Source: an uncultured Bacteroidales bacterium (GTDB lineage: Bacteria > Bacteroidota > Bacteroidia > Bacteroidales > Bacteroidaceae). From it: DNA of 64,000 nt. Below, in pieces: positions 7,511 through 54,858 of this stretch. Position 1 is the first letter of the stretch; every line of letters begins with the position of its first letter. The stretch is taken from contig CACYLU010000004.1 of the NCBI GenBank assembly GCA_902775375.1, forward strand, positions 16,265-80,264. The letters are read 5' to 3'. The notes beneath the pieces were generated by a model. It did no database searches. It saw nothing but the letters and a program-made list of their open reading frames with translations, and was not told where the DNA came from. The position numbers and the translations under genes are program-made.

Positions 7511-7885
7511 AAAAGTGACAATAGTGACAATAAAAATGCGAAATCCTCATACGCGCGACATTTAGTCGGGGCTTAAATGTCATGTATAGGAAAAATTTGA
7601 TTTCCTTGAGTCATTAAAGTCATAATGTTTGCATTAGCTGCTAAATATCAACGATTTACAATGCTTGCAAAAAAGTGCCTCTTTTTATAGAGAAATCAGC
7701 CTGCTTTTACCATGAATGTAGGGCGCAAAGCCAGCAAAAAGAGCCTGCTTTCGGCAGCAAACTAATATGGCGTGAAATATTTTGCCGAGGCTTTGAGATT
7801 ATATTGTCTGAAGTTCAACTGCCATATGCGAGAAAAAAACGCTGATGTTTGTCATTTCTTGTCATTGTCGGTCAAAGATTGTCAA
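7511..7885. repeat. Structured intergenic repeat module (GTGACAATA x2 ... TTGTCA arrays, internal 22-bp-period units)
   Basis: GTGACAATA tandem at 7515-7532. Inverted TTGTCA(T) copies at 7849-7885. Internal inverted repeat GACATTTA/TAAATGTC at 7557-7581. GCCT(G)CTTT units start near 7676, 7698 and 7742 (22-bp register). Confidence 0.6.
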
Positions 7886-8110
7886 CGGAAGGTGCAGGAA
7901 GCATTACTTTTGCAGTGCCTTCAGGAAAAAGGAAAGCGAGCTGCAAAAGTATCCTGAAGGTAGAAAGTTAATAAATTCACTTATAGCCAAAACGTATGAT
8001 TATTTTCAAAGTAGGATATAACAAAAACTCTTTCACCTCAGCCTTAGGTAAGTGGTATGGTAGTATTATTTCGGTTGAGACCATGAATTCCCAAACTGAC
8101 AAGCTAGTTG

Positions 8111-8145
8111 AAAAAAGGGGAGGTACAATCTTGCACTCCCCCTTT
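8111..8145 (-). terminator. Intrinsic terminator downstream of the aldo/keto reductase operon
   Basis: GGGGAGGTACAA-TC-TTGCACTCCCC imperfect stem preceded on the plus strand by A6, which gives a U-tract on the minus strand. Confidence 0.7.
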
Positions 8146-8164
8146 GCTTCAAGCATTATGTATT

Positions 8165-9589
8165 TTACAGTGTTTCTTGTTTCAACGCTTCCACATACTT
8201 GTCGATACGTTGCATCTGCTGTGGTATGTTGATGCGTTGCGGGCACTCCGGTGAGCATTGGTTGCAGCCGGTACAATGGCTGGCCTGGCGGAGCTTGGGC
8301 ACAGAGCGGTCATAGCCCACCAAGAAGGCCTGACGGGCTTTCTTGTAGTTAGGATCTTGACGGCTCTCCGGCACGTTGCCTTCGTTCACGCATTTGTTGT
8401 AATGCACGAGAATGCCTGGGATATCCAATCCGTAAGGACAAGGCATGCAGTATTGGCAGCTGTTGCACGGGATGGTGGGGTAGGTGACCATCAAGCTGGC
8501 GGTGTCTTCCAGATAGGCCAGGTCGGCCTCTGACAATGGCACTACTGGTGCCAAACTGCGGATGTTATCTTGCAGATGCTCCATATAGGTCATACCGCTC
8601 AACACACTCAGCACCATAGGGAAGGTACCGCAGAAGCGGAAGGCCCATGATGCCACGCTGTTCTCTGGCTCTTGCTGCTTGAGGCGTGCCACAATGTGGT
8701 TAGGTACATTTGACAAACGGCCACCCAACAACGGCTCCATGATGGTGCAAGGGATGTTGCGTTTTGCCAGTTCGCCATACAGATACTCGGCATTGACATT
8801 GCGTGGGTTGGTCTCCTTGGCGTGGGTCCAGTCGAGGTAATTCATCTGAATCTGTACGAAGTCCCACTTGTATTTGCCTTCGTCGTGCAGTTGCAGCATA
8901 TAGTCGAACACTGCCACATCACCGTGGAACGACCAGCCCAGGTTGCGAATCCTGCCTGCTTCTTTCTCCTTTACGAGGAAGTCGAGCATGCCGTTGTCGA
9001 AGAATCGTTCCATCAGCAAAGGTATGCCGCTACCGCCTCCGATAGAGTGCAGCAGATAGTAGTCGATATAGTCAATCTGCAACTCCTTGAACGAGTTGTA
9101 GTACATCTCCTGTGAGCGCTTCAGCAATTCCTGTGGCGAGAGTCCTTGACCAGCAAAGCGTTGGTTGGACATCTTGGTGGCCACGTAGAAACTCTCGCGT
9201 GGATGGCGCTTCAAGGCAATGCCGGTGGCACGCTCAGACTGGCCCTGCACATAAACGGGAGCCGTATCGTAGTAGTTTACACCATGCGCCATTGCATAGT
9301 CAATCAGTTCGTTCACACGCTCTTGGTCGATGATGTTGCCATTAGCATCAGGCTGAGGCAGGGTAGGCCAGCGCATGCAGCCGTAACCCAAGAGCGAAAC
9401 CTTATCGCCTGTAGTGGGGTTGGTGCGATAGGTCATCTGTCCTACAGGCACCTCAGTGGTGTGGTGGCCTGCTGGGTCGTATTGGGCATCTTTCTTGGGG
9501 GCACAACTTGCTACAGCGGCTCCTGCAGCAACTGTTGCACCTGCTCCCATGACCTTCAGGAACCCACGACGGTTGATATTATTAGCCAT
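8165..9589 (-). CDS. Twin-arginine-signal aldo/keto reductase with C-terminal 2x[4Fe-4S] domain (paralog 2)
   Basis: NRRGFLK Tat motif followed by AAVAS-C. AKR tetrad-like YYDTAPVY / ATKM / LLHS. C-terminal CNSCQYCMPC and CTGCNQCSPECP. Confidence 0.9.
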   Translation of the reverse strand: MANNINRRGFLKVMGAGATVAAGAAVASCAPKKDAQYDPAGHHTTEVPVGQMTYRTNPTTGDKVSLLGYGCMRWPTLPQPDANGNIIDQERVNELIDYAMAHGVNYYDTAPVYVQGQSERATGIALKRHPRESFYVATKMSNQRFAGQGLSPQELLKRSQEMYYNSFKELQIDYIDYYLLHSIGGGSGIPLLMERFFDNGMLDFLVKEKEAGRIRNLGWSFHGDVAVFDYMLQLHDEGKYKWDFVQIQMNYLDWTHAKETNPRNVNAEYLYGELAKRNIPCTIMEPLLGGRLSNVPNHIVARLKQQEPENSVASWAFRFCGTFPMVLSVLSGMTYMEHLQDNIRSLAPVVPLSEADLAYLEDTASLMVTYPTIPCNSCQYCMPCPYGLDIPGILVHYNKCVNEGNVPESRQDPNYKKARQAFLVGYDRSVPKLRQASHCTGCNQCSPECPQRINIPQQMQRIDKYVEALKQETL

Positions 9590-9591
9590 AA

Positions 9592-11001
9592 TTAGATAGT
9601 TTCTTGTTTTAATGCTTCAACATATTTGTCTATACGCTGCATTTCACCTGGTATATCTATGCGTTGAGGGCAATGAGGTGAGCATTGGTTACAACCGATA
9701 CAGTGACTTGCCTGACGAAGCTTCGGCACACTGCGGTCGTAGCCCACAAGGAAAGCGCGCCTTGCAGACCTATAGTTGGAGTCACCCTTGCTTGTAGGGA
9801 TGTTCTTCTCGTATGCACATTTATTATAATGTATGAAAATTGCAGGGATGTCGAGTCCGTAAGGACAAGGCATGCAGTATTTGCAATCATTACATTGGAT
9901 AGTAGGTGTGGCGAGAACTCGTAAGGTGGTCTGTTCCAAATATTCCTTGTCATCTTCAGTAAGAGGCACTAATGGAGCCAAGCTGCGCAGATTGTCTTCC
10001 AGATGCTCCATCATAGTCATGCCACTTAGGGCAGTCAGCACTCCTGGCAGTGATGCTACCCATCGGAATGCCCATGATGCCACACTGTCTTCCGGCCTTC
10101 GTTGTTTGAGCATTACCACGGCATCATCAGGAAGTCTGGAAAGGCGACCTCCCAGCAGGGGTTCCATTACCACTACAGGAATGCCCCTGCGGTTCAACTC
10201 TCCATAGAGATATTCTCCATTGGTATTGCGGGCGTTGATCTCTTTTGCATGAAGCCAGTCCATGTAGTTGAGCTGTATCTGTGCGAAATCCCAGTGGTAT
10301 TTGCCCTCGTCGTGCCATTGTAGTAGCAGATCGAACACTTTAATGTCGCCATGATAGGAGAAACCCAGGTTGCGGATGCGTCCAGCTTTCTTCTGTTCGA
10401 CCAACCAGTCAAGTATGCCATTGTCGATAAATCGCTCATTGAACTCTTTCAAACCTTCCCCCATGCCGATGCCATGCAGCAGATAGTAATCTATGTAGTC
10501 AGTCTGCAGCTCCTTCAGTGAATTCTCAAACAAAGCCATGCTGGCTTCGCGTGGGAATTGTGCAGGAGCGAAATTCGACATCTTAGTAGCTATATAGTAG
10601 GAGTCTCTCGGATAACGACTTAGGGCTATGCCCATTGAACGCTCAGAACCACCTCGGCAATAGGCTGGAGATGTGTCGAAATAGTTGATGCCATGAGCCA
10701 GTGCCACATCTGTCAGTTCGTTTACACGCTCTTGGTCAATGTCGGCTGCTGTCTCACGCGCACTGCCTCCGTCAACTGTTGGCAGACGCATAAAACCATA
10801 TCCTAGCACTGACACCTTATCGCCAGTATTGGGATTTTCGCGCATGGTCATTTGTCCTGTTGGCAAAGGCCCAGTATGAGTGCCAGCCACTGAAATTTGC
10901 TGTTTAGGTTGGCAACTTTCCATTGCCGCGCCTGCAGCTACTGTGGCGCCAGCTCCCATCACCTTCAGGAATCCACGGCGACTTATATTGTTATTAGCCA
11001 T
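9592..11001 (-). CDS. Twin-arginine-signal aldo/keto reductase with C-terminal 2x[4Fe-4S] domain (paralog 1)
   Basis: SRRGFLK Tat motif followed by AAMES-C. Motifs YFDTSPAY / ATKM / LLHG, CNDCKYCMPC and CIGCNQCSPHCP. Start placed at MANNNIS (11001). Confidence 0.9.
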   Translation of the reverse strand: MANNNISRRGFLKVMGAGATVAAGAAMESCQPKQQISVAGTHTGPLPTGQMTMRENPNTGDKVSVLGYGFMRLPTVDGGSARETAADIDQERVNELTDVALAHGINYFDTSPAYCRGGSERSMGIALSRYPRDSYYIATKMSNFAPAQFPREASMALFENSLKELQTDYIDYYLLHGIGMGEGLKEFNERFIDNGILDWLVEQKKAGRIRNLGFSYHGDIKVFDLLLQWHDEGKYHWDFAQIQLNYMDWLHAKEINARNTNGEYLYGELNRRGIPVVVMEPLLGGRLSRLPDDAVVMLKQRRPEDSVASWAFRWVASLPGVLTALSGMTMMEHLEDNLRSLAPLVPLTEDDKEYLEQTTLRVLATPTIQCNDCKYCMPCPYGLDIPAIFIHYNKCAYEKNIPTSKGDSNYRSARRAFLVGYDRSVPKLRQASHCIGCNQCSPHCPQRIDIPGEMQRIDKYVEALKQETI

Positions 11002-11013
11002 CGTAATTGTCAA

Positions 11014-12579
11014 TTAGATGGTTCTGTGTACTTCGTGACCTTCCACGTGGATAGCACTCAGCGGACGAGAAGGACAGAGGTTCTCGCAAGCACCGCAACC
11101 GATGCAGAGCTCCTCGTTTACCACAGGAATCTTCAGTGACTTAGGATCGTTGGCATCAAGTGGCACCATCGTGATAGCACCAGAAGGACAGTGACGTGCG
11201 CAGTTGCCACACTCCTGACCATCTTTGATAGGCACACAGAGCTCGCGTGTCCATACGGCATGACCCACCTGGATGGAAGACTTCTCTGCCACATCGATGA
11301 GGCTGATGGCACCAGCAGGGCACACCTCAGAGCAACGCACGCACTCAGGACGGCAATAGCCCACCTCGTAGCTTGCCTCCGGCTGCATGAGTGTCATCAG
11401 GTCGGTACTTGGACGAAGTACGCCATTAGGACAAGCGGAAACGCAGAGCTGGCAGCCAGTACAGTGGCTAGCCATGTTCTTCAGGCTCTTGGCACCTGGA
11501 GGCACAATCTTGGTGGCACGCTTGGGAGCCACCTTGTCGGCTATATCAGCCAATCCACCGTCCACCTTCTTGTCGGTAGCTTCTGGAATGATCTGTGCCT
11601 TAGCTGCAGCTGCTGCACCCACTGCGATGGTGGTGAGGAAAGTGCGCAGGCCCGGGTCTTTCACGTCAGCCTTAGCCTCTGCCTTAGGAGCTGGCTTGGC
11701 AGATTTTTCAACAACTACTGGCTTTGGGAATGCAGTAGCCATAGAAGGCACGGCAAACTTATAGCTCAGTGCACCGAACTTGCATTTCTCCAGACAGTTG
11801 CCACAGGTGACACAACGACTGTAGTCAACAGTGTGTGTCTTATAGTCAATACAAGAAGCCTTGCAGTTGCGTGAGCACATGCTGCAGCTCTTGCACTTCT
11901 CGGCATCGAAGGTTACATGGAAGAACGAGAAGCGTGCGAAGAATCCCAGCACGGTTCCCACAGGGCAGATGGTGTTGCAGTAAGTTCTGCCATTGCGCCA
12001 AGCCAGGATGAAGATAATGACCAGCGTAACGACAGCGATGATGAGTGTAGGCATTGACTTGATCCAAACATCGACGTCATAGATGGCATAGCTGTCATAC
12101 TTCTCAGCGATGGAAGCCAGCAGGTTGTTGCCCCAGCGGTAGATGGGCTGGAAGATGTTGCTGGCGATACGTCCGTAAGAACTATACGGAGCGAGCAGTG
12201 CAACGAATGAGCCCACACCAGCGATGAGTGCCACGATGAACACGCCCAGTACGGAGTAGCGTAGTGCGCTCTTGGCCTTAGAATAGGTGTAAGGGATTTT
12301 GCACTCCTTCTTTGGACGGGCTTTCTTGCCCAGCCATGCGATGATGTCCTGGAACACACCCATAGGGCATATCACCGAGCAGTAGATGCGTCCGAAGATA
12401 AGTGTCAGTGCGATAAGCAGAATGATAACTCCTGCGTTGAGTGCCAGTACGGCAGGCAGGAACTGCAGTTTTGCCATCCATGAGAACCAAGTGTGGGTCA
12501 CTCCAGTAAAGTCCAAGAACATCAGGGTGATGCACACGAAGAAAATGGTGGCCAGCGTCAGTCTAATTTTACGTACCAT
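11014..12579 (-). CDS. Membrane polyferredoxin (NapH/MauN-like N-half fused to NapF/NapG/MauM-like C-half)
   Basis: TM helices with two CX3CP motifs (YCSVICPMG, YCNTICPVG) and six ferredoxin-type Cys motifs (CKSCSMCSRNC, CVTCGNCLEKC, CTGCQLCVSACP, CRPECVRCSEVCP, C..ECGNCARHCP, CIGCGACENLCP). Confidence 0.88.
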   Translation of the reverse strand: MVRKIRLTLATIFFVCITLMFLDFTGVTHTWFSWMAKLQFLPAVLALNAGVIILLIALTLIFGRIYCSVICPMGVFQDIIAWLGKKARPKKECKIPYTYSKAKSALRYSVLGVFIVALIAGVGSFVALLAPYSSYGRIASNIFQPIYRWGNNLLASIAEKYDSYAIYDVDVWIKSMPTLIIAVVTLVIIFILAWRNGRTYCNTICPVGTVLGFFARFSFFHVTFDAEKCKSCSMCSRNCKASCIDYKTHTVDYSRCVTCGNCLEKCKFGALSYKFAVPSMATAFPKPVVVEKSAKPAPKAEAKADVKDPGLRTFLTTIAVGAAAAAKAQIIPEATDKKVDGGLADIADKVAPKRATKIVPPGAKSLKNMASHCTGCQLCVSACPNGVLRPSTDLMTLMQPEASYEVGYCRPECVRCSEVCPAGAISLIDVAEKSSIQVGHAVWTRELCVPIKDGQECGNCARHCPSGAITMVPLDANDPKSLKIPVVNEELCIGCGACENLCPSRPLSAIHVEGHEVHRTI

Positions 12580-12698
12580 AATAAAATAATTTGTCAGATT
12601 TTAATTTAATGGGCGTAAATATAGTCATTTTCCTTTAAATATAAAAGTTGTGTATAGCAAAAACGAAAAATAATGACTAAAAACGAAACAAAAAGTGA

Positions 12699-14633: not shown

Positions 14634-14660
14634 GGTAATTAGTAATAATGGTTTATATTA

Positions 14661-14668
14661 CAAAGATA
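14661..14668 (-). promoter_or_regulatory. -7 promoter box (TATCTTTG) for GH97
   Basis: Plus strand CAAAGATA, 28 nt upstream of the start. Confidence 0.6.
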
Positions 14669-14707
14669 GTACAAGTTGGCGAAAGAACAAAGAAAGTATG
14701 TCTTTTG

Positions 14708-17808: not shown

Positions 17809-17849
17809 AATCTTTCTTTTAGTTAGCTAATCATGACGTTGTTAAAAAC

Positions 17850-17894
17850 AAAAAAAGCAATTAACATCTAAGCTTTATTAGATATCAATTGCTT
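17850..17894 (-). terminator. Probable terminator downstream of the tRNA-Tyr/tRNA-Gly pair
   Basis: Nested inverted repeats AAGCAATT/AATTGCTT and ATCTAA/TTAGAT, with an A7 run on the plus strand. Confidence 0.55.
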
Positions 17895-17901
17895 CATTTA
17901 G

Positions 17902-17974: not shown

Positions 17975-17996
17975 AAAATTCTTTGAATTTTACGGC

Positions 17997-18227: not shown

Positions 18228-18230
18228 CAA

Positions 18231-27836: not shown

Positions 27837-29045
<1,209 letters not shown>

Positions 29046-29066
29046 GAAGTAACGCTATTATAAATT

Positions 29067-29098
29067 AAGAGGATGTGCAAATGCGCATCCTCTTTTTT
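29067..29098 (+). terminator. Intrinsic terminator after the esterase
   Basis: AAGAGGATGTGCA-AA-TGCGCATCCTCTT stem followed by a T-run. Confidence 0.85.
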
Positions 29099-29140
29099 GT
29101 TCCCATAGCTCGTATGGAGCAAGGCGGTAGCTAATGAATG

Positions 29141-29255
29141 GCTTACTTCCGCTAAGCCGTCCTTTTACTTCCGCTAAGCGGGGTGTTTACTTCTTTTTTC
29201 TCCCTCGTTAGGCTTTTATTATTCTCTCGTGAGGGAAAAATATTTTCCTAACGCT
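29141..29255. repeat. 22-bp-period repeats (TTACTTCCGCTAAG units, then CCCTCGTTAGG/CTCTCGTGAGG units)
   Basis: TTAC starts at 29143, 29165 and 29187. Second motif at 29202 and 29224. Inverted repeat CGTTAGG/CCTAACG. Confidence 0.75.
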
Positions 29256-29311
29256 ACGGCAAAACAAGTGGAAATAAAGGACATTCTACTTTAGAAATGA
29301 TACTATGCTCG

Positions 29312-29478
29312 AAAAAACTCTTCACTCTTCACGAATGTAGTGTAATATTCTGATATATAGTGTTATAAATGAGTGAAGTGTTGTGAAGTGTTGTGAAGAG
29401 TTGGTGTGACTCTTCACGCGGTAAATTGATTGTAATACAGTTATTTATACCGTATTTGTGAAGAGTGAAGACTTTTTT
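29312..29478. repeat. 167-bp element with 21-bp terminal inverted repeats (MITE-like / iteron-like)
   Basis: AAAAAACTCTTCACTCTTCAC (29312-29332) versus GTGAAGAGTGAAGACTTTTTT (29458-29478), 20/21 match. Internal GTGAAGTGTT x2 and a GTGAAGAG/CTCTTCAC pair. Confidence 0.75.
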
Positions 29479-29555
29479 ACGATTTTCATTTTTCTCTGCT
29501 CCTATCCCTTAGGAATAAACTAGGAATAATGATGTGATTTGCAATATTGCAACTC

Positions 29556-29710
29556 TATGCTTTGCGCCCTGCATCCTTGTTGTTTGCGGCTTGCCTCCTT
29601 ATGGCTTTCAGCCTGCAAACCTATGGTTTGTGCCCTACATTCATATAGCTTTCAGTCCTCAAACATATTACTAATGTCAAGCCATGCACATTACTTCCTC
29701 AAAAAAATAC
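29556..29710. repeat. Degenerate 22-bp-period tandem array
   Basis: Units start at 29556, 29578, 29600, 29622, 29644 and 29666 (for example TATGCTTTGCGCCCTGCATCCT, TATGGCTTTCAGCCTGCAAACC, TATGGTTTGTGCCCTACATTCA). Confidence 0.6.
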
Positions 29711-29763
29711 TTTTAGACCAAATAATGGTAAAGATAGAACTTTTCATTTTCTAAAATTTGCTG

Positions 29764-29771
29764 TACATTTG
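29764..29771 (+). promoter_or_regulatory. -7 promoter box (TACATTTG) for the 29904 gene, implying a leader of about 125 nt
   Basis: Consensus match. Confidence 0.5.
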
Positions 29772-29903
29772 CCGTCGAAAATGCGGGAAATGGACTTTAT
29801 TTCTTAGATAATAAAATTATGTAGAGGATTTATATAACTGTCGCCCGCAAATATTCCCATAGAAATATTAGAAATAGTTCAGTTATTGTGGTTAACTATT
29901 TAA

Positions 29904-38000: not shown

Positions 38001-38538
38001 AACTCTCAGGATGCTTTCCTTTGTAATCCTTGAAGTGTTGCTTTATTTCGATTATGTCTTTATCGTAGTCACCTGTAGGAATAAATGTTTTGGTGCATTC
38101 TACGATTTTCCTCTTATAATCAAGACCAAATAACATTATAGGTACATGGGCATTTAGGGCGATATAGTAGAAACCTTTTTTCCACTGCGGGTTAGCTTTT
38201 CGTGTACCTTCTGGTGTGATAGCAAGGTTTAGCTGTTTACGTTGGTTGAAAAGTGTCGCCAATTGTTCTGTCAGAGAAGTCTTCTTACTGCGATCTACAG
38301 GAATCCCTCCCATCCAGCGGAAAAAAATACCCAAAGGAAAGAAGAACCAGTCTTTTTTCATAAGAAAACTGGCTTCTCTTCCCAAAGCCCCCCATAGAAG
38401 TTTGCCAACAAACAAGTCCCAGTTGGATGTATGGGGGACTACACAGATAACACATTTGTCTTCAAGTGGGACGGTAAAGTTTGTGCTCCATCCCAGTAGC
38501 TTGTAATAGATAAAACTGAACAGTTTTTTCTTCATCAA
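37990..38538 (-). CDS. PlsC-family acyltransferase
   Basis: VPHTSNWD (HX4D), GGIPVDRS, ITPEGTR, WKKGFYYIA. Confidence 0.9.
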   Translation of the reverse strand: MMKKKLFSFIYYKLLGWSTNFTVPLEDKCVICVVPHTSNWDLFVGKLLWGALGREASFLMKKDWFFFPLGIFFRWMGGIPVDRSKKTSLTEQLATLFNQRKQLNLAITPEGTRKANPQWKKGFYYIALNAHVPIMLFGLDYKRKIVECTKTFIPTGDYDKDIIEIKQHFKDYKGKHPESFAI

Positions 38539-38813
38539 TCAGCTAAAGTTAATTTGTCGATCGCGTCAATGATTTCAGTGACTTTTTGATCGAACTCAGC
38601 ATGGAATTGCTTATAAAACCCCTTTACGTTACCTGGTTCCGTGTGACTGAGACGATTTACAAAATCATCCTGTGTCTTGAGAATGTCGGTTAGTACTTCG
38701 TCGGCCATATGAGGATTCACCCCCTTAAGGTACAATTTTGCGGCCAGACACTCAGCGAACAATGCGCTTGATACTTCATTGACGAACTGTTTTAAATCTT
38801 TTCTTTTTGCCAT
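38535..38813 (-). CDS. Small hypothetical protein (92 aa, helical)
   Basis: ATG start, plausible composition, ATGA overlap with the downstream plsC-like gene. Confidence 0.75.
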   Translation of the reverse strand: MAKRKDLKQFVNEVSSALFAECLAAKLYLKGVNPHMADEVLTDILKTQDDFVNRLSHTEPGNVKGFYKQFHAEFDQKVTEIIDAIDKLTLAD

Positions 38814-38974
38814 ATTAATTACCTCCTGTAAGTTTATGGATTAGTTTTCACGGGTAAAGATAGTAAAATAATTCTTAATCGCAATGCAACAATCAAATAA
38901 ATATTTGCATTTCTTCGAAAAAAATGCGATATTTGCAGTCCAATTAAGGTTAAACTTTATTTAGAGATAAGAAA

Positions 38975-41536: not shown

Positions 41537-41570
41537 TATCTTTTTTCAGCTATCGTAAAATAATGTTGTG

Positions 41571-41632
41571 GCTTACTAGTAGTAAAGCCTCCTTTTACTA
41601 GTAGTAAAACGGTAGCTTACTAGTAGTAGAAG
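41571..41632. repeat. Three TTACTAGTAGTA units at 22-bp period
   Basis: TTAC starts at 41573, 41595 and 41617. Confidence 0.85.
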
Positions 41633-41752
41633 TTTCATGTGTTGATTGTTGTCACGAATCAACATTAAATGTTAGCATTTATGTTTTCGCTGCTCCAAAA
41701 TTTGTTTCTATCTTTGGATTATATTATCTTTGCGAAAAAAGGAGGCTTGTCA

Positions 41753-44859: not shown

Positions 44860-44863
44860 TGAG

Positions 44864-45784: not shown

Positions 45785-45786
45785 CA

Positions 45787-46383: not shown

Positions 46384-46413
46384 TCCTTACTCCCTGTCAT
46401 CTTTTGCCTTCTT

Positions 46414-49266: not shown

Positions 49267-49316
49267 TTAGTTTTTAGGTTATTATGTATTATACTATCTT
49301 ATTATCGAGAATGAAG

Positions 49317-49958
49317 TTAAATCCTGAAAAAAGGATTCTCTGTCTTTTCTATACCAATAGATGTAGGTGCTCCATGCCCTGGGTAAACAATAGTTTCATC
49401 TGGCAAAACAAACAATTTCTCGCAAATGCCTTCTATCAAGGTATCAAAATTGCCACCGGCTAAGTCGGCACGTCCAATGCTACCTTGAAAAAGGACATCA
49501 CCAGAAAACAAACAGTTGTCTGCTGCACAATAGAAAACAATACTACCAGGCGAATGGCCAGGCACATGAATAACTTCCAATTTAGTGTTGCCAAAGGTGA
49601 CAAAATTCCCCTCATGTAAATGAATCGATGGTGGTGCAGGCTCTTGTTCCAACTTTACTCCAAACATTCTACTCTGTTTTGGAGCTTCTTCTATCCAGAA
49701 AAGGTCTGCTTCATGCGCCTCACTTTTAATACCAAAGGTTTTCTCGCAGAAAGGATTGCCACATATATGGTCTATGTGCAGGTGTGTATTAAGAAGATGC
49801 TTAACCACTAACTCATTGCTGGTAATGTAATCCTTTAGAGCAGTCTTTTCTTCCTCGTAATAACACCCAGGGTCTATCAGTACTGCTTCGTGGGTATCAT
49901 CCCATAATACATAGCAGTTCACAGGGAACATGTTAAATTCAAATCTCTTAATCTTCAT
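49317..49958 (-). CDS. MBL-fold metallo-hydrolase (glyoxalase II-like)
   Basis: Motifs THLHIDHICG, PGHSPGS, FSGDVLF.GSIGRADL, YPGHG. Confidence 0.92.
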   Translation of the reverse strand: MKIKRFEFNMFPVNCYVLWDDTHEAVLIDPGCYYEEEKTALKDYITSNELVVKHLLNTHLHIDHICGNPFCEKTFGIKSEAHEADLFWIEEAPKQSRMFGVKLEQEPAPPSIHLHEGNFVTFGNTKLEVIHVPGHSPGSIVFYCAADNCLFSGDVLFQGSIGRADLAGGNFDTLIEGICEKLFVLPDETIVYPGHGAPTSIGIEKTENPFFRI

Positions 49959-50593
49959 ATAGCTGTAAATACTACTTTCTTTGTTTCAAAATAGGCTTCT
50001 TCAAAAAACTCAGAAAGGTCCCAAGTTAGACTTCTGTTTCTAAAATGTGAAATTTCTTGTTCTAATTCTCCTCCTTTCAGACAAATAATGCCATTAGGAA
50101 GAGCATTTTGCTGTTGTTTCTTTATGTTTTTCTTGACTATTTTTACTAAATCACCCATAGGCATAACCGCACGACTAACAACAAAGTCGAATTTAGCTTT
50201 TTCTTCCTCTGCTCTTTCATGTGAAAAAGATATATTGTTCAACCCAATACTTTGGCTAATTTCTGTAGCTACTCGTATTTTCTTGCCTATGCTATCAATG
50301 AGGTGAAACTTGACTTCTGGGAAGTAAATGGCTAATGGAATGCCAGGGAAACCACCTCCAGATCCCAAATCCATAACAGTAGTACCAGGCTTGAAGTTAA
50401 TGACTTTGGCGATGCCTAAAGAATGTAGTACGTGATGTTCATATAGATTGTCAATATCCTTACGAGATATCACATTGATTTTAGCATTCCAATCTTCATA
50501 TAAGTCTCCCAATGCTTTAAACTGTCTTTGTTGTTCCAAAGACAGTCCATCGAAATACTTGTTAATTATTTCCCATCGACTATTATCCATCAA
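49955..50593 (-). CDS. rsmG: 16S rRNA m7G527 methyltransferase
   Basis: Motifs WNAKINVISR, HVLHSL, DLGSGGGFPGIPLAI, DSIGKK, VVSRAV. Confidence 0.96.
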   Translation of the reverse strand: MMDNSRWEIINKYFDGLSLEQQRQFKALGDLYEDWNAKINVISRKDIDNLYEHHVLHSLGIAKVINFKPGTTVMDLGSGGGFPGIPLAIYFPEVKFHLIDSIGKKIRVATEISQSIGLNNISFSHERAEEEKAKFDFVVSRAVMPMGDLVKIVKKNIKKQQQNALPNGIICLKGGELEQEISHFRNRSLTWDLSEFFEEAYFETKKVVFTAI

Positions 50594-50616
50594 TTAAAAT
50601 AAATAAGATGTAAACT

Positions 50617-51465
50617 CTAATTCCTTAACTCTTTAACAATCATATATTCTGTATTCAGAATAGGCTCAAGCTGCTTAAAGCTTAAATCGATTTCTATAGG
50701 CCCTATTACATATGGGGCGATTTCATAAATATTATATAGGAATGATATACCTCCAGGCGTCAACTTGAAATTCTCTGTCGGGATGATGTCTGCAGTAGTG
50801 CCATATCCTAACTCCTCTAATTCTTCTTTTGTTGATGCCCCTGTGTCTTCCATTAGCTGCGAGACGAGCATCTCAGTTAATTCTTCATCATATTCACCTA
50901 TGAGTAAATCATTCAGTTCGATCTGCTTTAGAGAGCGTAAATCAATGTTTAAGAAATAGGTATAATACACTGGATGGGCACCTCCTGTAAACTCTTCCAT
51001 ATAAAATCTATAGGTGAGAAGATGCTTATCATAGTATTCCACTTTAGTCTCTGTTTCATGTTCGTAAGAGTACCATGCTTTGTTGGGTTCATCTCCTATC
51101 TCAGCAGACTCATCACGATACATTGGCTCTAGATCTTTACGATAACTGGAAAAGTAATTATCTGCATACAGCCTCATGGCTTGTTCTGGATTATTCATAG
51201 AATACTTGTTTCCAAATACAAACCCTTGTAACATGTGATTAATACTGTCTCTCATCGTTTCATCCGAAGATTCCTTGATGAATGAAAAATTAATTTTCAG
51301 ATTTGCCTGAGGCTTGTTTTCATCAGCAAATAAATGCTGACTTTCCTTCAGTGTTATATTGTCAAACTTTAGGTGTCCTACCAACCTGCTATCTTGTTTG
51401 CATCCATAGAAAAAGATGCTGAAAGAAAGTATTATAAAGAATGTACTGACAAATTGTCTTTTCAT
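50617..51465 (-). CDS. DUF4163/DUF3298 (PdaC/RsiV-like) lipoprotein
   Basis: Lipobox FFYGC, FTGGAHP motif, F.YNIYEIAPY..G motif. Confidence 0.8.
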   Translation of the reverse strand: MKRQFVSTFFIILSFSIFFYGCKQDSRLVGHLKFDNITLKESQHLFADENKPQANLKINFSFIKESSDETMRDSINHMLQGFVFGNKYSMNNPEQAMRLYADNYFSSYRKDLEPMYRDESAEIGDEPNKAWYSYEHETETKVEYYDKHLLTYRFYMEEFTGGAHPVYYTYFLNIDLRSLKQIELNDLLIGEYDEELTEMLVSQLMEDTGASTKEELEELGYGTTADIIPTENFKLTPGGISFLYNIYEIAPYVIGPIEIDLSFKQLEPILNTEYMIVKELRN

Positions 51466-51503
51466 GCCTATGGCTGTTAATATGAATAATCGAATTCAGA
51501 TAG

Positions 51504-51533
51504 CGAAGATACGAATTATTTTTCTTATCTTTG
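51504..51533. promoter_or_regulatory. Divergent -7 boxes: TATCTTCG (minus, 51504-51511) and TATCTTTG (plus, 51526-51533)
   Basis: Consensus matches between divergent genes. Confidence 0.6.
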
Positions 51534-51552
51534 TAAACATAATGAAAAAAAC

Positions 51553-52236
51553 ATGGGAAATCTGATTACGGAAGACTGGGGACTTGTTGATTATGCTGAA
51601 GCATGGGAAAGACAAGAGTTTCTATTCCATCAAAAGATAGAACAAAAACAAAGAGGAGAATCAGCAACTGTTGACCGTATTGTTTTTTGTGAACACCCTC
51701 ATGTCTATACGCTGGGGCGTAGTGGGAAAACTGCTAATTTATTAGTTTCTGAACAGCAATTACAACAATTAAAAGCGTCTTTCTATAAAATCGACAGGGG
51801 AGGAGATATTACCTATCATGGCCCTGGACAGTTGGTTTGTTACCCCATTCTTGATCTGGAACATTTTCATCTTGGGCTAAAAGAATATGTTCATTTGATA
51901 GAAGAAGCTGTAATTCATGTTTGCTTTTCCTACGGCATTCAAGCAATGCGTATGGAGAAAGCGACAGGTGTGTGGTTGGAAGCTTATACGTCTCGTGCTC
52001 GTAAAATATGTGCCATCGGAGTGAGAAGTAGTAGGTATATTACTATGCATGGGCTGGCACTAAATGTAAATACAGATCTCCGTTATTTTAGTTACATTAA
52101 CCCTTGTGGCTTTATTGATAAGGGTGTGACTTCAATAGCCAAAGAATTGAAGACTGATGTACCCATGGATGAAGTCAAAAATCGTTTGGCTGAGTATATG
52201 ATTAAATTATTGAATAAGAACAATGAAGATAACTAG
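51553..52236 (+). CDS. lipB: Lipoyl(octanoyl) transferase
   Basis: Motifs [49 protein letters not shown]. Confidence 0.96.
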
Positions 52237-52828
52237 TGCAGAGTTTGTTATTAGCAACACGGATGTGAATAAATGTCCCAAGACAGGTTTCCCTGAATAT
52301 GCTTTTATTGGAAGAAGTAATGTGGGCAAGTCTAGTCTTATCAATATGCTTACAGGCAATAAGAAGTTGGCTATGACGTCTTCAACTCCAGGCAAAACTC
52401 TTCTAATTAATCACTTTTTAATTAATAAGCAATGGTATCTGGTTGATTTGCCTGGTTATGGGTATGCCAATCGTAGTAAAAAAAGCGTAGCAGATATTCA
52501 GCGAGTTATTGGTTCTTATCTTGAGAATCGTATGGAGATGACTTGCTTGTTTGTGTTGATTGACAGCCGTTTAGAACCACAAGCTATTGACATGAATTTT
52601 ATGAACTGGCTTGGCGAGAACCAAGTGCCTTTTGCTATAGTCTTTACAAAAGCTGATAAGCAGTCTAAGTCAAGAACTGAAAGCAATATTAGAGGATATA
52701 TAGAAAAAATGAAAGAACAGTGGGAAGAGTTGCCTCCTTATTTTATAACATCCTCTCTTACAGGAGTTGGTAAAGATGATGTATTGTCATATATAGAATC
52801 TATAAATATTTCTTTGAATAAAAAATGA
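52223..52828 (+). CDS. yihA: Ribosome biogenesis GTPase YihA/YsxC/EngB
   Basis: Motifs [32 protein letters not shown]. Confidence 0.96.
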
Positions 52829-52925
52829 TATGATTATTCACTTTTTTATAAAAAGTGTGCAATGATACAAACTATTTTTTGTAAATTTGCAGCCTTGTTT
52901 AAACGATAATAAAATTTTTTTAAAA

Positions 52926-54113
52926 ATGAGTTTACTATCAGAGAAGTTAGGTAAATACCAAGAACCTCAGTATTACAAGGCTAAAGGCGTCTACCCCTAT
53001 TTCCGAGAAATTGACAGTCACCAGGGCACCGAAGTCATGATGAGCGGTAAAAAAGTCCTAATGTTTGGATCTAACGCTTATACGGGCTTAACTTATGACC
53101 AAAGAATTATTGATGCTTCAATCGAAGCAACAAAAAAATATGGTACAGGATGTGCTGGCTCACGTTTGTTAAATGGAACACTTGATATACACGTTCAACT
53201 TGAAAAAGAACTTGCAGCGTTCTTAGGTAAAGACGAAGCATTGTGCTTCTCAACAGGTTTCACTGTAAATGAGGGTGTTATCCCCCAATTGGTAGGACGT
53301 GGTGACTATATTATATGCGACGACCGTGATCATGCTTCGATTGTTGATGGCCGTCGTCTTTCTTTTGCTACCCAACTTAAATACAAGCATAATGATATGG
53401 AAGCATTGGAGAAGGAACTCAAGAAGTGCGAACCCAATGCGATTAAATTGATTGTGGTTGATGGCGTTTTCTCTATGGAAGGCGATTTGGCCAATCTGCC
53501 TGAAATCATTCGATTGAAAAAGAAATATAATGCTTGTGTATATGTAGATGAGGCTCATGGCATTGGCGTGTTTGGTAAGCAAGGACGTGGTGTGTGCGAT
53601 TATTTTGGTGTGACAGATGAAGTGGATCTTATAATGGGTACATTTAGTAAGTCACTTGCTTCCCTTGGAGGTTTTGTCGCTTCTGAATCTGCTATTATTA
53701 ATGCTTTACGTCATAGTGCACGTTCATATATTTTCCAGGCAAGTAGTACTCCTGCAGCTACTGCCGCCACTCTTGAAGCTCTGCATATTATTCAGAATGA
53801 GCCTGAGCGTCAAGAAAAACTTTGGGAAATCACTAACTATGCTTTAGAGAAGTTCCGTGATGCAGGCTTTGAGATTGGCGATACCCAGTCACCTATTATA
53901 CCTTTGTATGTTCGTGATACTTACAAAACCTTTGCTGTTACAAAATTGGCTTTTGATGAGGGTATCTTCATTAATCCTGTAATACCACCTGCTTGTGCTC
54001 CACAAGACACTTTGGTGCGTGTTGCACTAATGGCTACTCATACAAAGGAACAGATAGACTTTGCGGTGGATCATTTATTGAAATGTTTCCGCTCATTAGA
54101 CATCATTCAGTAA
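52926..54113 (+). CDS. spt: Serine palmitoyltransferase (alpha-oxoamine synthase family), sphingolipid synthesis
   Basis: KAKGVYPYFR, MFGSN.Y.GLT, GTGCAGSRLLNGT, DHASIVDG, DEAHG, GTFSKSLA. N-terminus resembles Bacteroides SPT rather than BioF. Start placed at M14 after the -7 box TAAATTTG (52882-52889). Confidence 0.85.
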   Translation: MSLLSEKLGKYQEPQYYKAKGVYPYFREIDSHQGTEVMMSGKKVLMFGSNAYTGLTYDQRIIDASIEATKKYGTGCAGSRLLNGTLDIHVQLEKELAAFLGKDEALCFSTGFTVNEGVIPQLVGRGDYIICDDRDHASIVDGRRLSFATQLKYKHNDMEALEKELKKCEPNAIKLIVVDGVFSMEGDLANLPEIIRLKKKYNACVYVDEAHGIGVFGKQGRGVCDYFGVTDEVDLIMGTFSKSLASLGGFVASESAIINALRHSARSYIFQASSTPAATAATLEALHIIQNEPERQEKLWEITNYALEKFRDAGFEIGDTQSPIIPLYVRDTYKTFAVTKLAFDEGIFINPVIPPACAPQDTLVRVALMATHTKEQIDFAVDHLLKCFRSLDIIQ

Positions 54114-54185
54114 AAAATGTGTGATATATATAAATTTTTTTGATTTTTTTTGTTTAATAAAAAATCTTATTTATATTTGCATCGG

Positions 54186-54289
54186 ATAATAACAGACAAA
54201 ACATATTAAATCTCTCTGTAAGTTTTTGAATTAGATGTTGTAGTGAATGGGGGAAAGGGGATGTGAATTTCTTTTCCCTCAGTTTTTTT
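54186..54289 (+). ncRNA. Candidate small RNA of about 100 nt with its own promoter and terminator
   Basis: -33 TTTG (54149-54152), 19 nt, -7 TATATTTG (54172-54179). 15-bp G-U-rich stem with GTGA (GNRA) loop at 54248-54281 followed by T7. No ORF inside. Confidence 0.5.
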
Positions 54290-54332
54290 GAAAAAAAGTG
54301 AAAGATTATTTGCACGATTGAAAATAATGTCT

Positions 54333-54340
54333 TACCTTTG
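54333..54340 (+). promoter_or_regulatory. -7 promoter box (TACCTTTG) for tRNA-Pro
   Basis: Consensus match 24 nt upstream of the tRNA. Confidence 0.75.
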
Positions 54341-54363
54341 CATCGCTTTTGAAAGAAAGCCTT

Positions 54364-54438
54364 CGGGGTGTAGCGCAGTCCGGTTAGCGCACCTGCTTTG
54401 GGAGCAGGGGGTCCCAAGTTCGAATCTTGGTACCCCGA
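54364..54438 (+). tRNA. tRNA-Pro (TGG)
   Basis: CGGGGTGTAGCGCAGTCCGGTTAGCGCACCTGCTTTGGGAGCAGGGGGTCCCAAGTTCGAATCTTGGTACCCCGA. Anticodon arm CCTGC-TTTGGGA-GCAGG. Confidence 0.97.
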
Positions 54439-54468
54439 CAATATAAGGTTGGTATTAACAAAGGAAAT

Positions 54469-54503
54469 TAGGCGATTACGTGTAAACGTAGTCGCTTATT
54501 TTT
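54469..54503 (+). terminator. Intrinsic terminator after tRNA-Pro
   Basis: 13-bp stem TAGGCGATTACGT-GTAA-ACGTAGTCGCTTA (2 G-U pairs) followed by T5. Confidence 0.8.
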
Positions 54504-54588
54504 ATACTACTTCAATATTGCCTGAAGCGGATTTGAATAATGCCAATGTGGAGGCGTTGATACCGTTCCGGCTAAAGAACTGGGAATT

Positions 54589-54780
54589 TCTTACAATCTT
54601 ACAATCTTACAATCTTACAATCTTACAATAAGGATGTTCCACACCATCCCATGATAGTATAAGAAGTATAATATAACATATAATTATATATTATATTATA
54701 CTTCTTAATCCATTCAGGTTATTCACACCATATATGCTAGGGCCTTAATGTAAGAATGTTGGAATGTTAGAATGTAAGAA
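54589..54780. repeat. 192-bp symmetric element: (TCTTACAA)5 - 48-bp palindrome - inverted octamer array
   Basis: Five octamers at 54589-54628. Palindrome at 54660-54707 with one mismatched pair. TGTAAGAA/TGTTGGAA/TGTTAGAA/TGTAAGAA at 54749-54780. Confidence 0.85.
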
Positions 54781-54785
54781 CGCCA

Positions 54786-54858
54786 CCTGCTTACTAGAAC
54801 TAAACCTCCTGTTTACTAGAACTAAACCTCCTGTTTACTAGAACTAAGCCGCCTGTTT
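54786..54858. repeat. 22-bp tandem repeat, 3 copies plus partial (CCTG(C/T)TTACTAGAACTAA(A/G)CC)
   Basis: TTAC starts at 54791, 54813 and 54835. Confidence 0.9.

Follow-up and report, generated by a model that had tools for sequence, protein, structure and literature searches.

Modular repeat arrays between housekeeping genes of a Bacteroidales genome, possibly orphan copies of an origin-like island site

Short tandem and inverted repeats lie between the genes of the 64-kb stretch of chromosome from a rumen member of the Bacteroidaceae (Bacteroidales) analysed here (the window, 64,000 nucleotides), raising the question of what these repeats are and where they come from. The open reading frames (ORFs) scanned in the window are all housekeeping genes, with no transposase, integrase or Rep among them, as a sequence-only reading had stated; nor is any helicase, primase or HU-HIG protein encoded within the 64 kb.

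Repeat arrays in the window

Inverted arrays of short units (7-9 bp) are present in three gaps: g1 (7515-7886), g2 (29143-29715) and g4 (54589-54858). A purpose-built detector picks out exactly these three loci in the 64 kb, whereas 20 shuffles give a mean of 0.05 per window, the module detectors having been built after the window had been inspected; g1 and g2 do not satisfy the strict criterion for the AT centre. A 22-bp period occurs at four places (twice in g2, once in g4 and at 41573-41638). A lag-22 scan returns segments 29132-29210, 29539-29652, 41557-41644 and 54761-54880, while lags 20, 21, 23 and 24 give 0-1, and the motif TTACT-N5-TAA-N9-TTACT-N5-TAA matches three loci versus 0.00 expected. 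The features outside g4 are as follows:

7515-7532, + strand: g1 left array, GTGACAATA x2 (TRF and sequence reading)
7849-7886, - strand: g1 right array, TGTCAT/TGTCAA x4, inverted relative to the left array (sequence reading and inverted-array detector)
29143-29193, + strand: g2 22-bp repeats x2.3, TTACTTCCGCTAAGCC... (TRF and repeat search)
29200-29253, no strand assigned: g2 conserved segment, two CCCTCGTGAGG-type palindromes (inverted-repeat pair; kept in the homologous L124 module)
29312-29478, no strand assigned: g2 core, nested inverted CTCTTCA(C)/GTGAAG(AG) arrays around AT-rich spacers (34-nt arms, 82% complementary)
29539-29715, + strand: g2 degenerate 22-bp-phased tract (lag-22 segment 29539-29652; approximately 85% conserved in L124)
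41573-41638, + strand: lone 22-bp array, three copies of TTACTAGTAGTAAAGCCTCCTT, flanked by GH25 and DUF308 genes (lag-22 scan and motif match)

In the g2 core, CTCTTCA(C) is found at 29317-29333 and 29410-29417, with opposing GTGAAG(AG) at 29371-29403 and 29459-29473; a third TTACTTCC copy lies at 29691-29715. A distance of 316 bp separates the g1 arms, and 24 A+T is the maximum for any 30-bp window; an AT-rich or palindromic centre, an AT palindrome and 22-bp units are all absent from g1, which is a degenerate or atypical module.

The sequence-only reading had described a repeat system occupying every long intergenic gap, with 22-bp-phased units in all four and inverted arrays around an AT-rich or palindromic centre in three. 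The inverted arrays of g1, g2 and g4 stand, but g1 is without such a centre, and the 22-bp units are borne out in g2 and g4 but not in g1 (z = -0.3) or gap 3 (z = 0.7). A 92-aa ORF (38535-38813, minus strand) covers most of gap 3 (38539-38974), which therefore does not count as a long non-coding gap. With two good modules (g4 and g2), one degenerate module (g1) and one lone 22-bp array in the window, "every long gap" overstates the case. The array at 41573-41638 is a fourth 22-bp array that the earlier list had missed.

The g4 insertion

The distance from the tRNA end to the ATG of the glpD-like gene is 763 bp in the window versus approximately 70 bp in L001 and L002: g4 is an insertion of approximately 0.69 kb in this species, missing from two sister species. 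Its features are as follows:

54510-55193, + strand: g4 block, approximately 0.69 kb, from the tRNA-Pro terminator to the glpD-like start codon (comparison with sister species)
54589-54629, + strand: left iteron array, TCTTACAA x5.1 (TRF score 82, 100% matches)
54660-54707, no strand assigned: 48-bp AT-rich palindrome, 24+24 nt, 96% complementary and termed perfect (inverted-repeat pair)
54747-54781, - strand: right iteron array, inverted and degenerate, x4, TGTAAGAA TGTTGGAA TGTTAGAA TGTAAGAA (TRF and repeat search)
54783-54858, + strand: gene-proximal 22-bp direct repeats, 3.3 copies of CCTGTTTACTAGAACTAAACCT (TRF score 125)
55151-55158, + strand: TATCTTTG, presumed Bacteroides-type -7 promoter motif in the inserted tail (read from sequence)

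The last of these, a Bacteroides-type -7 motif, is probably the promoter of the glpD-like gene; a metatranscriptome contig (depth 36) starts at 55159. The cores of both g4 and g2 have strong cruciform or hairpin potential, with z = -6.7 for the single-stranded DNA fold of 54585-54785 and z = -5.3 for that of the g2 core.

The module family in Bacteroidales

The full order of parts is short iterons, AT-rich palindrome, inverted iterons and 22-bp direct repeats. A complete module has 2-5 tandem iterons of 7-9 bp, an AT-rich and often palindromic centre, and 2-4 of the 22-bp repeats, which are on one side only. This grammar recurs in rumen and gut Bacteroidales, with a code that differs at most loci. 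The modules form one family with a common grammar and mostly locus-specific repeat codes, much as the sequence-only reading had proposed, the exception being the g2 code, which is conserved across four genomes rather than locus-specific. Three paralogous modules in one metagenome-assembled genome (MAG) have the units ACATTAC, ACATCAC and ACATAAC; they differ at one position, and every unit of both arms shows the difference. A single-nucleotide change spread through all units of both arms is the behaviour of a specificity group.

Iteron codes and BT4734/DUF3987 helicases

In three lineages of BT4734/DUF3987 helicase, the 3' end of the gene carries an array, each lineage with its own code, and in two of the three the same code is repeated in an inverted module upstream. 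L097-type primases (53-98% identical, L215-L222) are all directly followed by three AGTAAC-type 8-mers and TTGTGGACAGGAA; this array duplicates the left arm of an inverted module located approximately 2 kb upstream in L097, L215 and L217. A more distant primase, L262, has ATATTGCA x3 directly after it, and only this 3'-end array is seen. The gene of the L303 DUF3987 helicase (primase HMM E = 2e-18) ends in a TTGTAAGA-type array, and upstream of its operon there is an inverted module that has four copies of the g4 code TCTTACAA and shares 85% identity with g4 in its AT centre; the degenerate pattern of the g4 right array is also found at the 3' end of this helicase gene. Helicase lineage and iteron code go together in these three lineages, which upholds the analogy to iteron/Rep specificity groups drawn from the window.

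The layout agrees with that published for the origins of staphylococcal pathogenicity islands (SaPIs). In these, 6-12 short iterons are divided equally between the two flanks of an AT-rich centre, and each flank has two or more, oppositely oriented; such an origin is specific for the Rep of its own island and directly follows the rep gene (PMC9371898). The module shares with the SaPI/PICI ori (Pri-Rep) the element-specific iterons in two opposed sets of at least two flanking an AT-rich centre and the iterons directly after the helicase gene, and both belong to chromosomal islands with a primase gene (PMC9371898). The module differs in its longer units (7-9 bp versus 5-6 bp), its often perfectly palindromic centre, the added polar block of 22-bp direct repeats, and the placement of the full inverted module upstream of the operon with a single arm after the helicase gene. 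Its helicase is of the BT4734/DUF3987 family, its commonest neighbour is an HU-HIG gene, many of its copies are gene-less, it belongs to a different phylum, and no helper phage or integrase is known for it.

The modules in the window could well be, though we hold this tentatively, orphan copies of an origin-like, helicase-loading site from a family of chromosomal islands in Bacteroidales. Complete islands encode an SF3-type BT4734/DUF3987 primase-helicase nearby and have an extra array at the 3' end of its gene, and then come an HU-HIG and a "smalltalk" gene. If the parallel with SaPIs applies, the iteron code would be recognised by the helicase, which would load as a pair of opposed rings with the AT-rich centre, where the duplex would melt, between them; the AT palindrome of g4 is the putative unwinding centre. 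A second factor, more conserved than the helicase, would bind to the 22-bp repeats.

Association with HU-HIG genes

The sequence-only reading had looked to a partner protein family, and the modules are indeed linked to HU-HIG and, through the islands, to primase-helicases. A module lies upstream of HU-HIG (HU_rel) genes in 25/58 cases; the strict detector gives 4.8 matches per 100 kb at HU-HIG loci, all of them upstream, versus 0 in 681 kb of control loci, an enrichment of more than 20-fold upstream of this family, many of these loci being paralogues or orthologues, such that the counts are not independent events. Of 31 modules, 12 have a 22-bp period on the side nearest the gene, and no other lag in the range 16-28 gives a match in any of the 31.

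The module might instead be a cis-acting architectural or regulatory site of an HU-HIG cassette, in which HU-HIG or a host factor coats the 22-bp repeats and arrays and so controls or insulates expression of HU-HIG and smalltalk, solo copies being cassettes minus the gene. We consider this unlikely. In its favour, the polar association just described is strong, with the 22-bp repeats invariably gene-proximal; in two paralogues from one genome the module is 98% identical versus 82% for the HU-HIG coding sequence; and the HU-HIG proteins, a DNA-binding family that diversifies rapidly, are not known to have a partner (PMC5499826). However, some HU-HIG proteins have been argued to be unable to clasp DNA (Burroughs et al., PMC5499826), promoter-like TTTG motifs lie approximately 100 bp from the HU-HIG ATG while the module is 250-900 bp upstream, HU-HIG proteins that are 94% identical follow different codes, and modules occur alone or beside helicase/methylase operons that have no HU-HIG gene.

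The origin-like reading has its own constraints. A primase is found within 3 kb in only 6/80 HU-HIG loci, so that most modules are not beside a candidate initiator, and the HU-HIG-linked modules of Prevotella sp. ne3005, numbering at least six, use at least four codes, so that several initiators would be needed. Because no integrase is seen in the available island parts and no HU-HIG turned up in phage or IMG/VR records (a plasmid search gave one weak match only), the island is only a putative autonomous replicon.

Dispersal and strain variation

The modules are dispersed. The L124 module, beside alaS and an island methylase, has the g2 code and the g2 order of parts, and the g2 22-bp units are 87.5% identical to units inside the L098 island. 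A 1.4-kb unit of module, HU-HIG and smalltalk has unrelated flanks in L234 and L244, g4 is an insertion, and g1 sits at a strain-variable island site: other strains have islands of more than 10 kb at this position, adjoining the stop codon of the aldo/keto reductase (AKR) gene. The Prevotellaceae MAG RUG12386 has dozens of 22-bp arrays with conserved flanks, and its units (GTTACTGACAGTAACCACGTGG) are two palindromes each.

Presence/absence polymorphism among strains, which the sequence-only reading had suggested checking, is not seen for g2 or g4. Both are present in all strain contigs examined, with differences limited to repeat number, and thus there is no sign of current mobility. The g4 left array has 5 or 4 copies and the 22-bp repeats 3.3 or 2.3 copies depending on the strain; one strain has a 5-bp indel in the g4 palindrome.

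That the modules are self-spreading, non-autonomous MITE/foldback elements or "mobile promoters", with the repeats as transposase-binding sites, seems to us rather improbable. Homologous copies in unrelated contexts, the promoter brought to the glpD-like gene by g4 and the RUG12386 arrays would all fit, and BrickBuilt of P. gingivalis, a 23-nt minisatellite in a MITE, offers a precedent: it too has strictly intergenic, head-to-tail 22-23-nt repeats in a member of the Bacteroidales, non-repeat "leader" and "tail" flanks, strain-variable copy number and promoter activity on neighbouring genes (PMC4596501). But BrickBuilt has IS5-like terminal inverted repeats, is reported as species-restricted, is without inverted iteron arrays or an AT palindrome, and has an unrelated unit sequence (AGAYCATARTATCCTCTCRTRTG) (PMC4596501). 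Neither terminal inverted repeats nor target-site duplications were seen on reading the ends of the g4 block, the g4 arrays are internal rather than terminal, no transposase is associated with the modules, and the presence of g2 and g4 in every strain contig also argues against this explanation.

It is less probable still that the modules are functionless by-products, with AT palindromes serving as bidirectional terminators or being neutral, and arms that lengthen and homogenise through replication slippage and template switching. Such a process would account for the repeat number variation and hairpin potential, and by forcing the arms to stay complementary could alone yield a "locus-specific" code; moreover, every copy in the window lies between a terminator and the next promoter. 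It leaves unexplained the constant four-part order, the exact one-sided 22-bp period, the enrichment upstream of HU-HIG genes and the reuse of codes at helicase gene ends, and the upstream genes already have their own terminators. An invertible phase-variable switch, in which the arrays are recombination sites that flip the centre, is very improbable even though the hallmark of Bacteroides invertons is a segment of 100-300 bp upstream of a gene, bounded by inverted repeats: inversion would have no effect on a centre that is itself palindromic and has no TAnnTTTG promoter motif, codes that differ at nearly every locus do not fit a shared recombinase, and no strand-switch joints are seen in the assembled contigs.

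Other systems with similar repeats

Iteron theta plasmid origins (pPS10, R6K, pSC101) have direct repeats of approximately 22 bp by an AT-rich unwinding region, followed by a DNA-binding-protein gene, and their repeat sequence sets specificity groups. The module resembles them in all of these respects; however, it is chromosomal and multi-copy, no Rep (winged-helix) gene or DnaA boxes are seen with it, and nothing in these plasmids corresponds to its short inverted arrays on both sides of the AT centre. Plasmid centromeres (parC of R1, pSM19035 heptads) likewise place a central region between two groups of short tandem repeats, ahead of the gene for a small DNA-binding protein, but the module is without a ParM/ParA-type partition ATPase or ribbon-helix-helix gene, its arms are inverted, and its centre is an AT palindrome and not a promoter. 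REP/BIME and REPIN sequences of Proteobacteria, like the modules, are short, partly palindromic units that are scattered through intergenic DNA and grouped in tandem or inverted clusters (compare the two-palindrome units of RUG12386). Unlike these, the module has a composite structure with strict 22-bp head-to-tail phasing, and no RAYT/TnpA(Y1) partner is seen for it. The module is widespread and apparently an undescribed repeat type.

If the modules are orphan copies of an origin-like island site, they would be sites of protein binding and origin activity, and may form a decay series that runs from the island to a module with HU-HIG, then to a solo module and lastly to a 22-bp array alone. 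The window would then hold only the last two stages of this decay, as solo modules and a lone 22-bp array.

Genomic setting

The window comes from the chromosome of a rumen Bacteroidaceae species whose closest species representatives are the MAGs RGIG9675 and RGIG3355 (approximately 82% DNA identity); a bovine metagenome scaffold (ERZ919294 scaffold_74) matches it at 100% over the stretches compared. Every sizeable ORF scanned is a housekeeping gene, including those for aldo/keto reductases (AKR), GH97, LepA, PFK, GcvP, a serine palmitoyltransferase-like enzyme (SPT), a glpD-like dehydrogenase and TonB receptors, among others. As the sequence-only reading had stated, these ORF scans give no transposase, integrase or Rep in the 64 kb, and no helicase, primase or HU-HIG (HU_rel DNA-binding family) homologue was found there by HMM or tblastn. 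Pfam scans around all window modules show housekeeping genes only, with no adjacent winged-helix initiator rep gene, and the Y1 transposase (RAYT) is absent from every Pfam scan made in this analysis. No TTATCCACA-type DnaA boxes were seen when the window gaps were read by eye, and Rfam at gathering thresholds returned tRNAs and no other known RNA. An ARAGORN tRNA-Val call inside an esterase ORF (28149-28238, minus strand) has no Rfam support and is probably a false positive. Two tandem paralogous AKR plus 4Fe-4S genes (9592-11013 and 8165-9589, minus strand) share approximately 66% DNA identity and have similar 3' ends.

Modules in the window

Four long gaps had been described as non-coding. 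This description holds for three of them (g1, g2 and g4); the fourth, gap 3 (38539-38974), is mostly occupied by a 92-aa ORF and is not truly non-coding.

Gaps and repeat features of the window
7288-8164: non-coding gap g1
29046-29903: non-coding gap g2
29143-29193: g2, left 22-bp unit, 2.3 copies
29312-29478: g2, nested inverted arrays, CTCTTCA(C)/GTGAAG(AG)
29539-29715: g2, right 22-bp-phased tract, degenerate
38535-38813, minus strand: 92-aa ORF of gap 3, good start context, no Pfam family
41573-41638: lone 22-bp array
54114-55202: non-coding gap g4
54589-54629: g4, left iterons, TCTTACAA x5.1
54660-54707: g4, AT palindrome, perfect, 24+24 nt
54747-54781: g4, right array, inverted and degenerate, TGTAAGAA TGTTGGAA TGTTAGAA TGTAAGAA
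54783-54858: g4, 22-bp direct repeats, 3.3 copies

The clearest module is g4, in which all four parts (iterons, AT palindrome, inverted iterons and 22-bp repeats) follow tRNA-Pro and its terminator in the same order as in loci L299, L231, L292 and L114 from other genomes. Five and four iteron units lie on opposite sides of a centre in which 29/30 positions are A+T. All module parts are also present in g2, which has 22-bp tracts on both sides and a weaker AT centre (25/30 A+T). In g1 there are arrays only: GTGACAATA x2 opposite four TGTCAT/TGTCAA units, 316 bp apart, with neither an AT palindrome nor a 22-bp period found.

A detector for tandem 6-mers that face a tandem array of their reverse complement 40-450 bp away picks out g1, g2 and g4 and nothing else in 64 kb, compared to 0.05 per shuffle; this and the other detectors were written after the window had been seen. 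Lag-22 self-similarity marks four window segments versus 0-1 at neighbouring lags. The motif TTACT-N5-TAA is common to the three good 22-bp units, and its two-unit pattern matches three loci (expected 0.00). Single-strand folding is far better than that of shuffles for the cores of both g4 (z = -6.7) and g2 (z = -5.3). The earlier observation is thus partly confirmed: inverted short-repeat arrays are present in all three gaps for which they were claimed, while the 22-bp units and the AT-rich or palindromic centre hold for g2 and g4 but fail for g1, and the 22-bp units fail for gap 3 too.

Distribution of the module family

An island in another strain contig, L098, carries the full grammar internally (ACAGATT x3, AT palindrome, CTGTAAT x2, and TTACTTC(C/T)GCTAAAC 22-bp units that are 87.5% identical to those of g2). 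More than 113 stretches with the three-unit TTACT-N5-TAA pattern occur in species-representative genomes, overwhelmingly in rumen and gut Prevotellaceae and Bacteroidaceae; IMG/VR yielded two stretches only. The rest of the grammar, with other iteron sequences (hereafter codes), recurs near many 22-bp arrays: the L114 module has ACGCGGTT x3, TTATAATATA x5.5, AACCGCGT x3 and then a 22-bp array, and further examples are L166, L182, L144, L188, L119, L159 and L165.

Homologous copies are found in different contexts. L124 contains a true homologue of g2, with the same order of parts, the same CTCTTCAC code and unique segments approximately 85% identical, yet it adjoins alaS, upstream of an island-type methylase; the CTCTTCAC code is also present in L120 and L144. 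A homologue of the g4 module occurs in the metagenome contig L303, and loose ends of metatranscriptome contigs provide another case. A 30-mer from these loose ends was not found in the JGI metagenomes. No description of the module was found in the literature on 22-bp repeats or iterons in Bacteroides, the smalltalk protein, or DUF4248/DUF3987.

Several related repeats were observed alongside. In a rumen Bacteroidaceae MAG, a complete module composed of 22-bp repeats, ACTCAAC x3, an AT repeat and TGTTGAG x4 lies directly upstream of dnaN (L166:1503-1890). In further Bacteroides species there are inverted-array palindromes that use different codes (L012:5989-6126, CACAGAT; L054:5292-5454, GGAGTTA; L043:443-516, CACAGAG), those of L012 and L054 downstream of an orthologous SPT gene and that of L043 elsewhere in its locus, which suggests either a recurrent site or independent origins. 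The Prevotellaceae MAG RUG12386 (L102-L214, contigs CACYYG01...) has dozens of 22-bp arrays whose unit, GTTACTGACAGTAACCACGTGG, consists of two palindromes; these arrays have two conserved flank types, a pattern of dispersal resembling that of REP or MITE elements. In primase islands, modules can be flanked or neighboured by very long arrays whose units measure 9-10 bp (CCTAGGAAA x10 and then approximately x20 at L217:700-770 and 1040-1250; GAGATTTGAGAATT-type repeats opposite CTCAAA units at L220:11283-11435). Finally, a conserved leader of approximately 300 nt separates a TTTG promoter from the start of an EcoRI-like adenine methylase (L097:17560-17875; L124:144-422, minus strand). Between these two unrelated contigs the leader is 77% identical. 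It has paired segments such as AAGTCGCAAGCG...CGTGACTTATC as well as a terminal hairpin (CATGGAT...ATCCATGC), and may act as a regulatory RNA with a defined structure.

Association with HU-HIG genes

HU-HIG genes were repeatedly found beside modules, and 80 HU-HIG loci (defined by PF18291; TIGR01201 HU_rel) were therefore collected. A module lies within 1.5 kb upstream, mostly at -250 to -900, in 25 of the 58 loci having at least 1.5 kb of upstream sequence; the loci include many paralogues and orthologues from related MAGs, such that counts are not independent events. Under a strict definition (AT centre at least 27/30 and at least 2 supporting k-mers), module density per 100 kb is 4.8 in HU-HIG loci and 0.5 in 22-bp-array loci, with 0 in 681 kb of controls, and all strict matches in full-length HU-HIG loci are upstream of the gene. 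The 22-bp period is similarly polar: it is present in 12/31 modules over the 300 bp from the right arm towards the gene and in 1/31 on the distal side, whereas other lags from 16 to 28 between right arm and gene occur in 0/31. Unit length in these modules is 7-9 bp (most commonly 8 bp), and the code is different in almost every one.

The module can be part of a larger cassette. A unit of approximately 1.4 kb comprising module, HU-HIG, 41-bp repeats and smalltalk (NF033879) is 85% identical between L234 and L244, with unrelated flanks. As a second repeat system of this cassette, two to three copies of the approximately 41-bp repeat (GCTGGGGTCAGGCCCCAAAGTAAAGTCG...) and an inverted counterpart directly follow HU-HIG (L234:3606-3780; L244:3606-4010), and the 33-aa smalltalk gene comes after them. 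In paralogous cassettes of Prevotella sp. ne3005, module identity (98% for L289 versus L293; 91% for L292 versus L302) is above that of the HU-HIG coding sequence (82% and 83%, respectively).

The paper that defined the HU-HIG family (Burroughs et al., PMC5499826) describes it as rapidly diversifying and multi-copy, without conserved gene linkage and of unknown function; within the searchable literature, a conserved DNA partner for it is thus without precedent. The polar association would fit a cis-regulatory or architectural site of HU-HIG, but the module is distant from the promoter, and copies without HU-HIG exist: on the downstream side of g4 there is no HU-HIG within approximately 1 kb, the next gene being the glpD-like dehydrogenase. 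The code also switches behind near-identical proteins. One MAG has three homologous modules with units ACATTAC, ACATCAC and ACATAAC, the single change being shared by every unit of both arms, and two HU-HIG proteins downstream of these ACATNAC-type modules are 94% identical despite their different codes. HU-HIG is thus unlikely to be the code reader.

Iteron codes and primase-helicases

The code instead appears, from sequence comparison, to track helicases of the BT4734/DUF3987 (primase-helicase) family, with three lineages and three codes: AGTAAC, ATATTGCA and TCTTACAA. All L097-type primase-helicases (53-98% identical) have three AGTAAC-type 8-mers plus TTGTGGACAGGAA directly after the stop codon, and this array duplicates the left arm of an inverted module approximately 2 kb upstream (L097, L215, L217). 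A more distant primase, in L262, has ATATTGCA x3 after the gene. In L303, an operon for a HIRAN protein, a 428-aa protein and a DUF3987 helicase (primase HMM E = 2e-18) is preceded by TCTTACAA x4, TAAGG and an AT palindrome that shares 85% identity with the g4 palindrome. The helicase gene itself closes with an array (TTGTAAGA TTGTTGGA TTGTTAGA TTGTAAGG), which makes up its final 12 codons and repeats the degenerate pattern of the g4 right arm.

The protein families linked to modules are HU-HIG, through the loci described, and the primase-helicases, through islands. With the code apparently following helicase lineage in three lineages, the earlier analogy to iteron/Rep specificity groups is apt, and the interpretation that includes it, of non-autonomous elements with locus-specific codes, is partly supported.

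Strains, sister species and islands

The g4 module is present in 6/6 same-species contigs, among which the 8-bp unit occurs 5 or 4 times, the 22-bp unit occurs 3.3 or 2.3 times, and the palindrome shows a 5-bp indel; g2 is present in every same-species contig examined and identical in the two compared. In both sister species, the end of tRNA-Pro is approximately 70 bp from the glpD-like ATG, and 54510-55193 is therefore a 0.69-kb insertion in the window lineage. On inspection, neither terminal inverted repeats nor a target-site duplication could be seen at its ends, which were placed by comparison with L001 and L002. The insertion tail bears a TATCTTTG promoter-like motif, and a metatranscriptome contig of the glpD-like gene begins at 55159. 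The idea that this tail preserves part of an HU-HIG gene or its leader was rejected, as no similarity between the tail and any HU-HIG locus was found.

At the g1 position most strains resemble the window. In six contigs (L090, L092, L093, L097-L099), homology ends at the AKR stop codon, g1 is absent beside AKR, and islands of more than 10 kb follow. Presence/absence polymorphism, expected of a MITE, may hold for g1, as judged from the AKR side of these islands; g2 and g4 vary in repeat number alone in the same-species contigs examined. One island type has HU-HIG, a BT4734-like primase-helicase, an EcoRI-like methylase, GmrSD and HicAB, and another has an M15 peptidase, HigBA and HU-HIG; the AKR 3' site holds two different islands in different strains. 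One strain has a second copy of the final 46 bp of the AKR gene (window 8164-8209) 37 bp past the stop, just before the >10-kb island (L092:3925-4007; L098), which looks like the footprint of integration into the 3' end of the gene.

A MITE or mobile promoter would account for the dispersal of modules and for the glpD-like promoter, but no defined ends and no transposase accompany them, and none of the strain contigs examined lacks g2 or g4. The four-part order, the exact 22-bp polarity and the enrichment at HU-HIG loci are left unexplained by neutral growth of palindromes or by a terminator. An inverton (Bacteroides invertible promoter) is opposed by a centre that is palindromic and lacks a promoter (no TAnnTTTG motif), and no strand-switch joints were seen in assembled contigs; two raw-read runs (X23 and X24) contained no reads of this organism. 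A phage origin was rejected because the 22-bp pattern has only two matches in IMG/VR and because HU-HIG, with a single weak match in plasmids, was found neither in IMG/VR nor among GenBank phages; homology to BrickBuilt was rejected since the unit sequence is unrelated.

Comparison with known origins and proposed mechanism

In the origins of staphylococcal pathogenicity islands (SaPIs), 6-12 short iterons are split equally between the two flanks of an AT-rich centre, with at least two per side in opposite orientation; these origins are Rep-specific and immediately downstream of rep, and a pair of helicase hexamers is proposed to load across their AT region (PMC9371898). Like SaPI/PICI origins, g4 clearly, and g2 with a weaker AT centre, have at least two opposed iterons per side. 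The window copies differ in having no adjacent cognate helicase (Rep) and primase, which stand beside the array in the related islands L097/L215-L217, L262 and L303. Iteron plasmid oriVs offer a second likeness, tandem repeats of approximately 17-22 bp beside an AT-rich region: g4 and g2 have such repeats of 22 bp, specific to that lag, but no adjacent winged-helix rep.

By this analogy, the modules are best filed as putative SaPI-like helicase origins that also have 22-bp repeats and HU-HIG as a partner, in a phylum from which no such origin is known to have been reported. From their anatomy, statistics and gene associations, all directly observed, we infer that they would be helicase-loading, origin-like sites of a Bacteroidales island family, with the 22-bp repeats binding a second, more conserved factor. 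Decay would run from island to module plus HU-HIG, to solo module, to 22-bp array alone. The window holds orphan copies only, which would stand at the end of this series, and g4 may still be recognisable in trans by an L303-type helicase. Against the origin reading, only 6/80 HU-HIG loci have a primase within 3 kb, so that most HU-HIG-linked modules are without one; neither integrase nor helper phage is known for the islands; HU-HIG is missing from the phage and virus collections searched; and the link between helicase and code rests on three lineages. A broader proposal, which we regard as rather doubtful, is that the lineage-specific HU-HIG expansions trace a large family of replicative, satellite-like islands, so far undescribed, with helicase-specific origins, whose orphans (such as g4) would still be competent and could be fired in trans.

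Implications

Few DNA-binding families of Bacteroidetes are as expanded, or evolve as fast, as HU-HIG/HU_rel; this family now has a conserved DNA partner and is tied to BT4734/DUF3987 primase-helicase islands with defence-type cargo (methylase, GmrSD and toxin-antitoxin pairs). Orphan copies put promoters beside core genes, here the glpD-like gene. Their palindromes break metagenome assemblies, and the variation of their repeat number between strains makes the copies potential typing markers. Should the modules be origins, Bacteroidales own SaPI-like replicating islands that are missed by current satellite and mobile-element finders, and the iteron code would be a simple sequence handle for island compatibility groups. 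If orphan origins fire in trans, driven by a helicase of matching code as in L303, the result would be local over-replication or mobilisation of neighbouring genes; alternatively, orphan origins may act as decoys that titrate the helicase.
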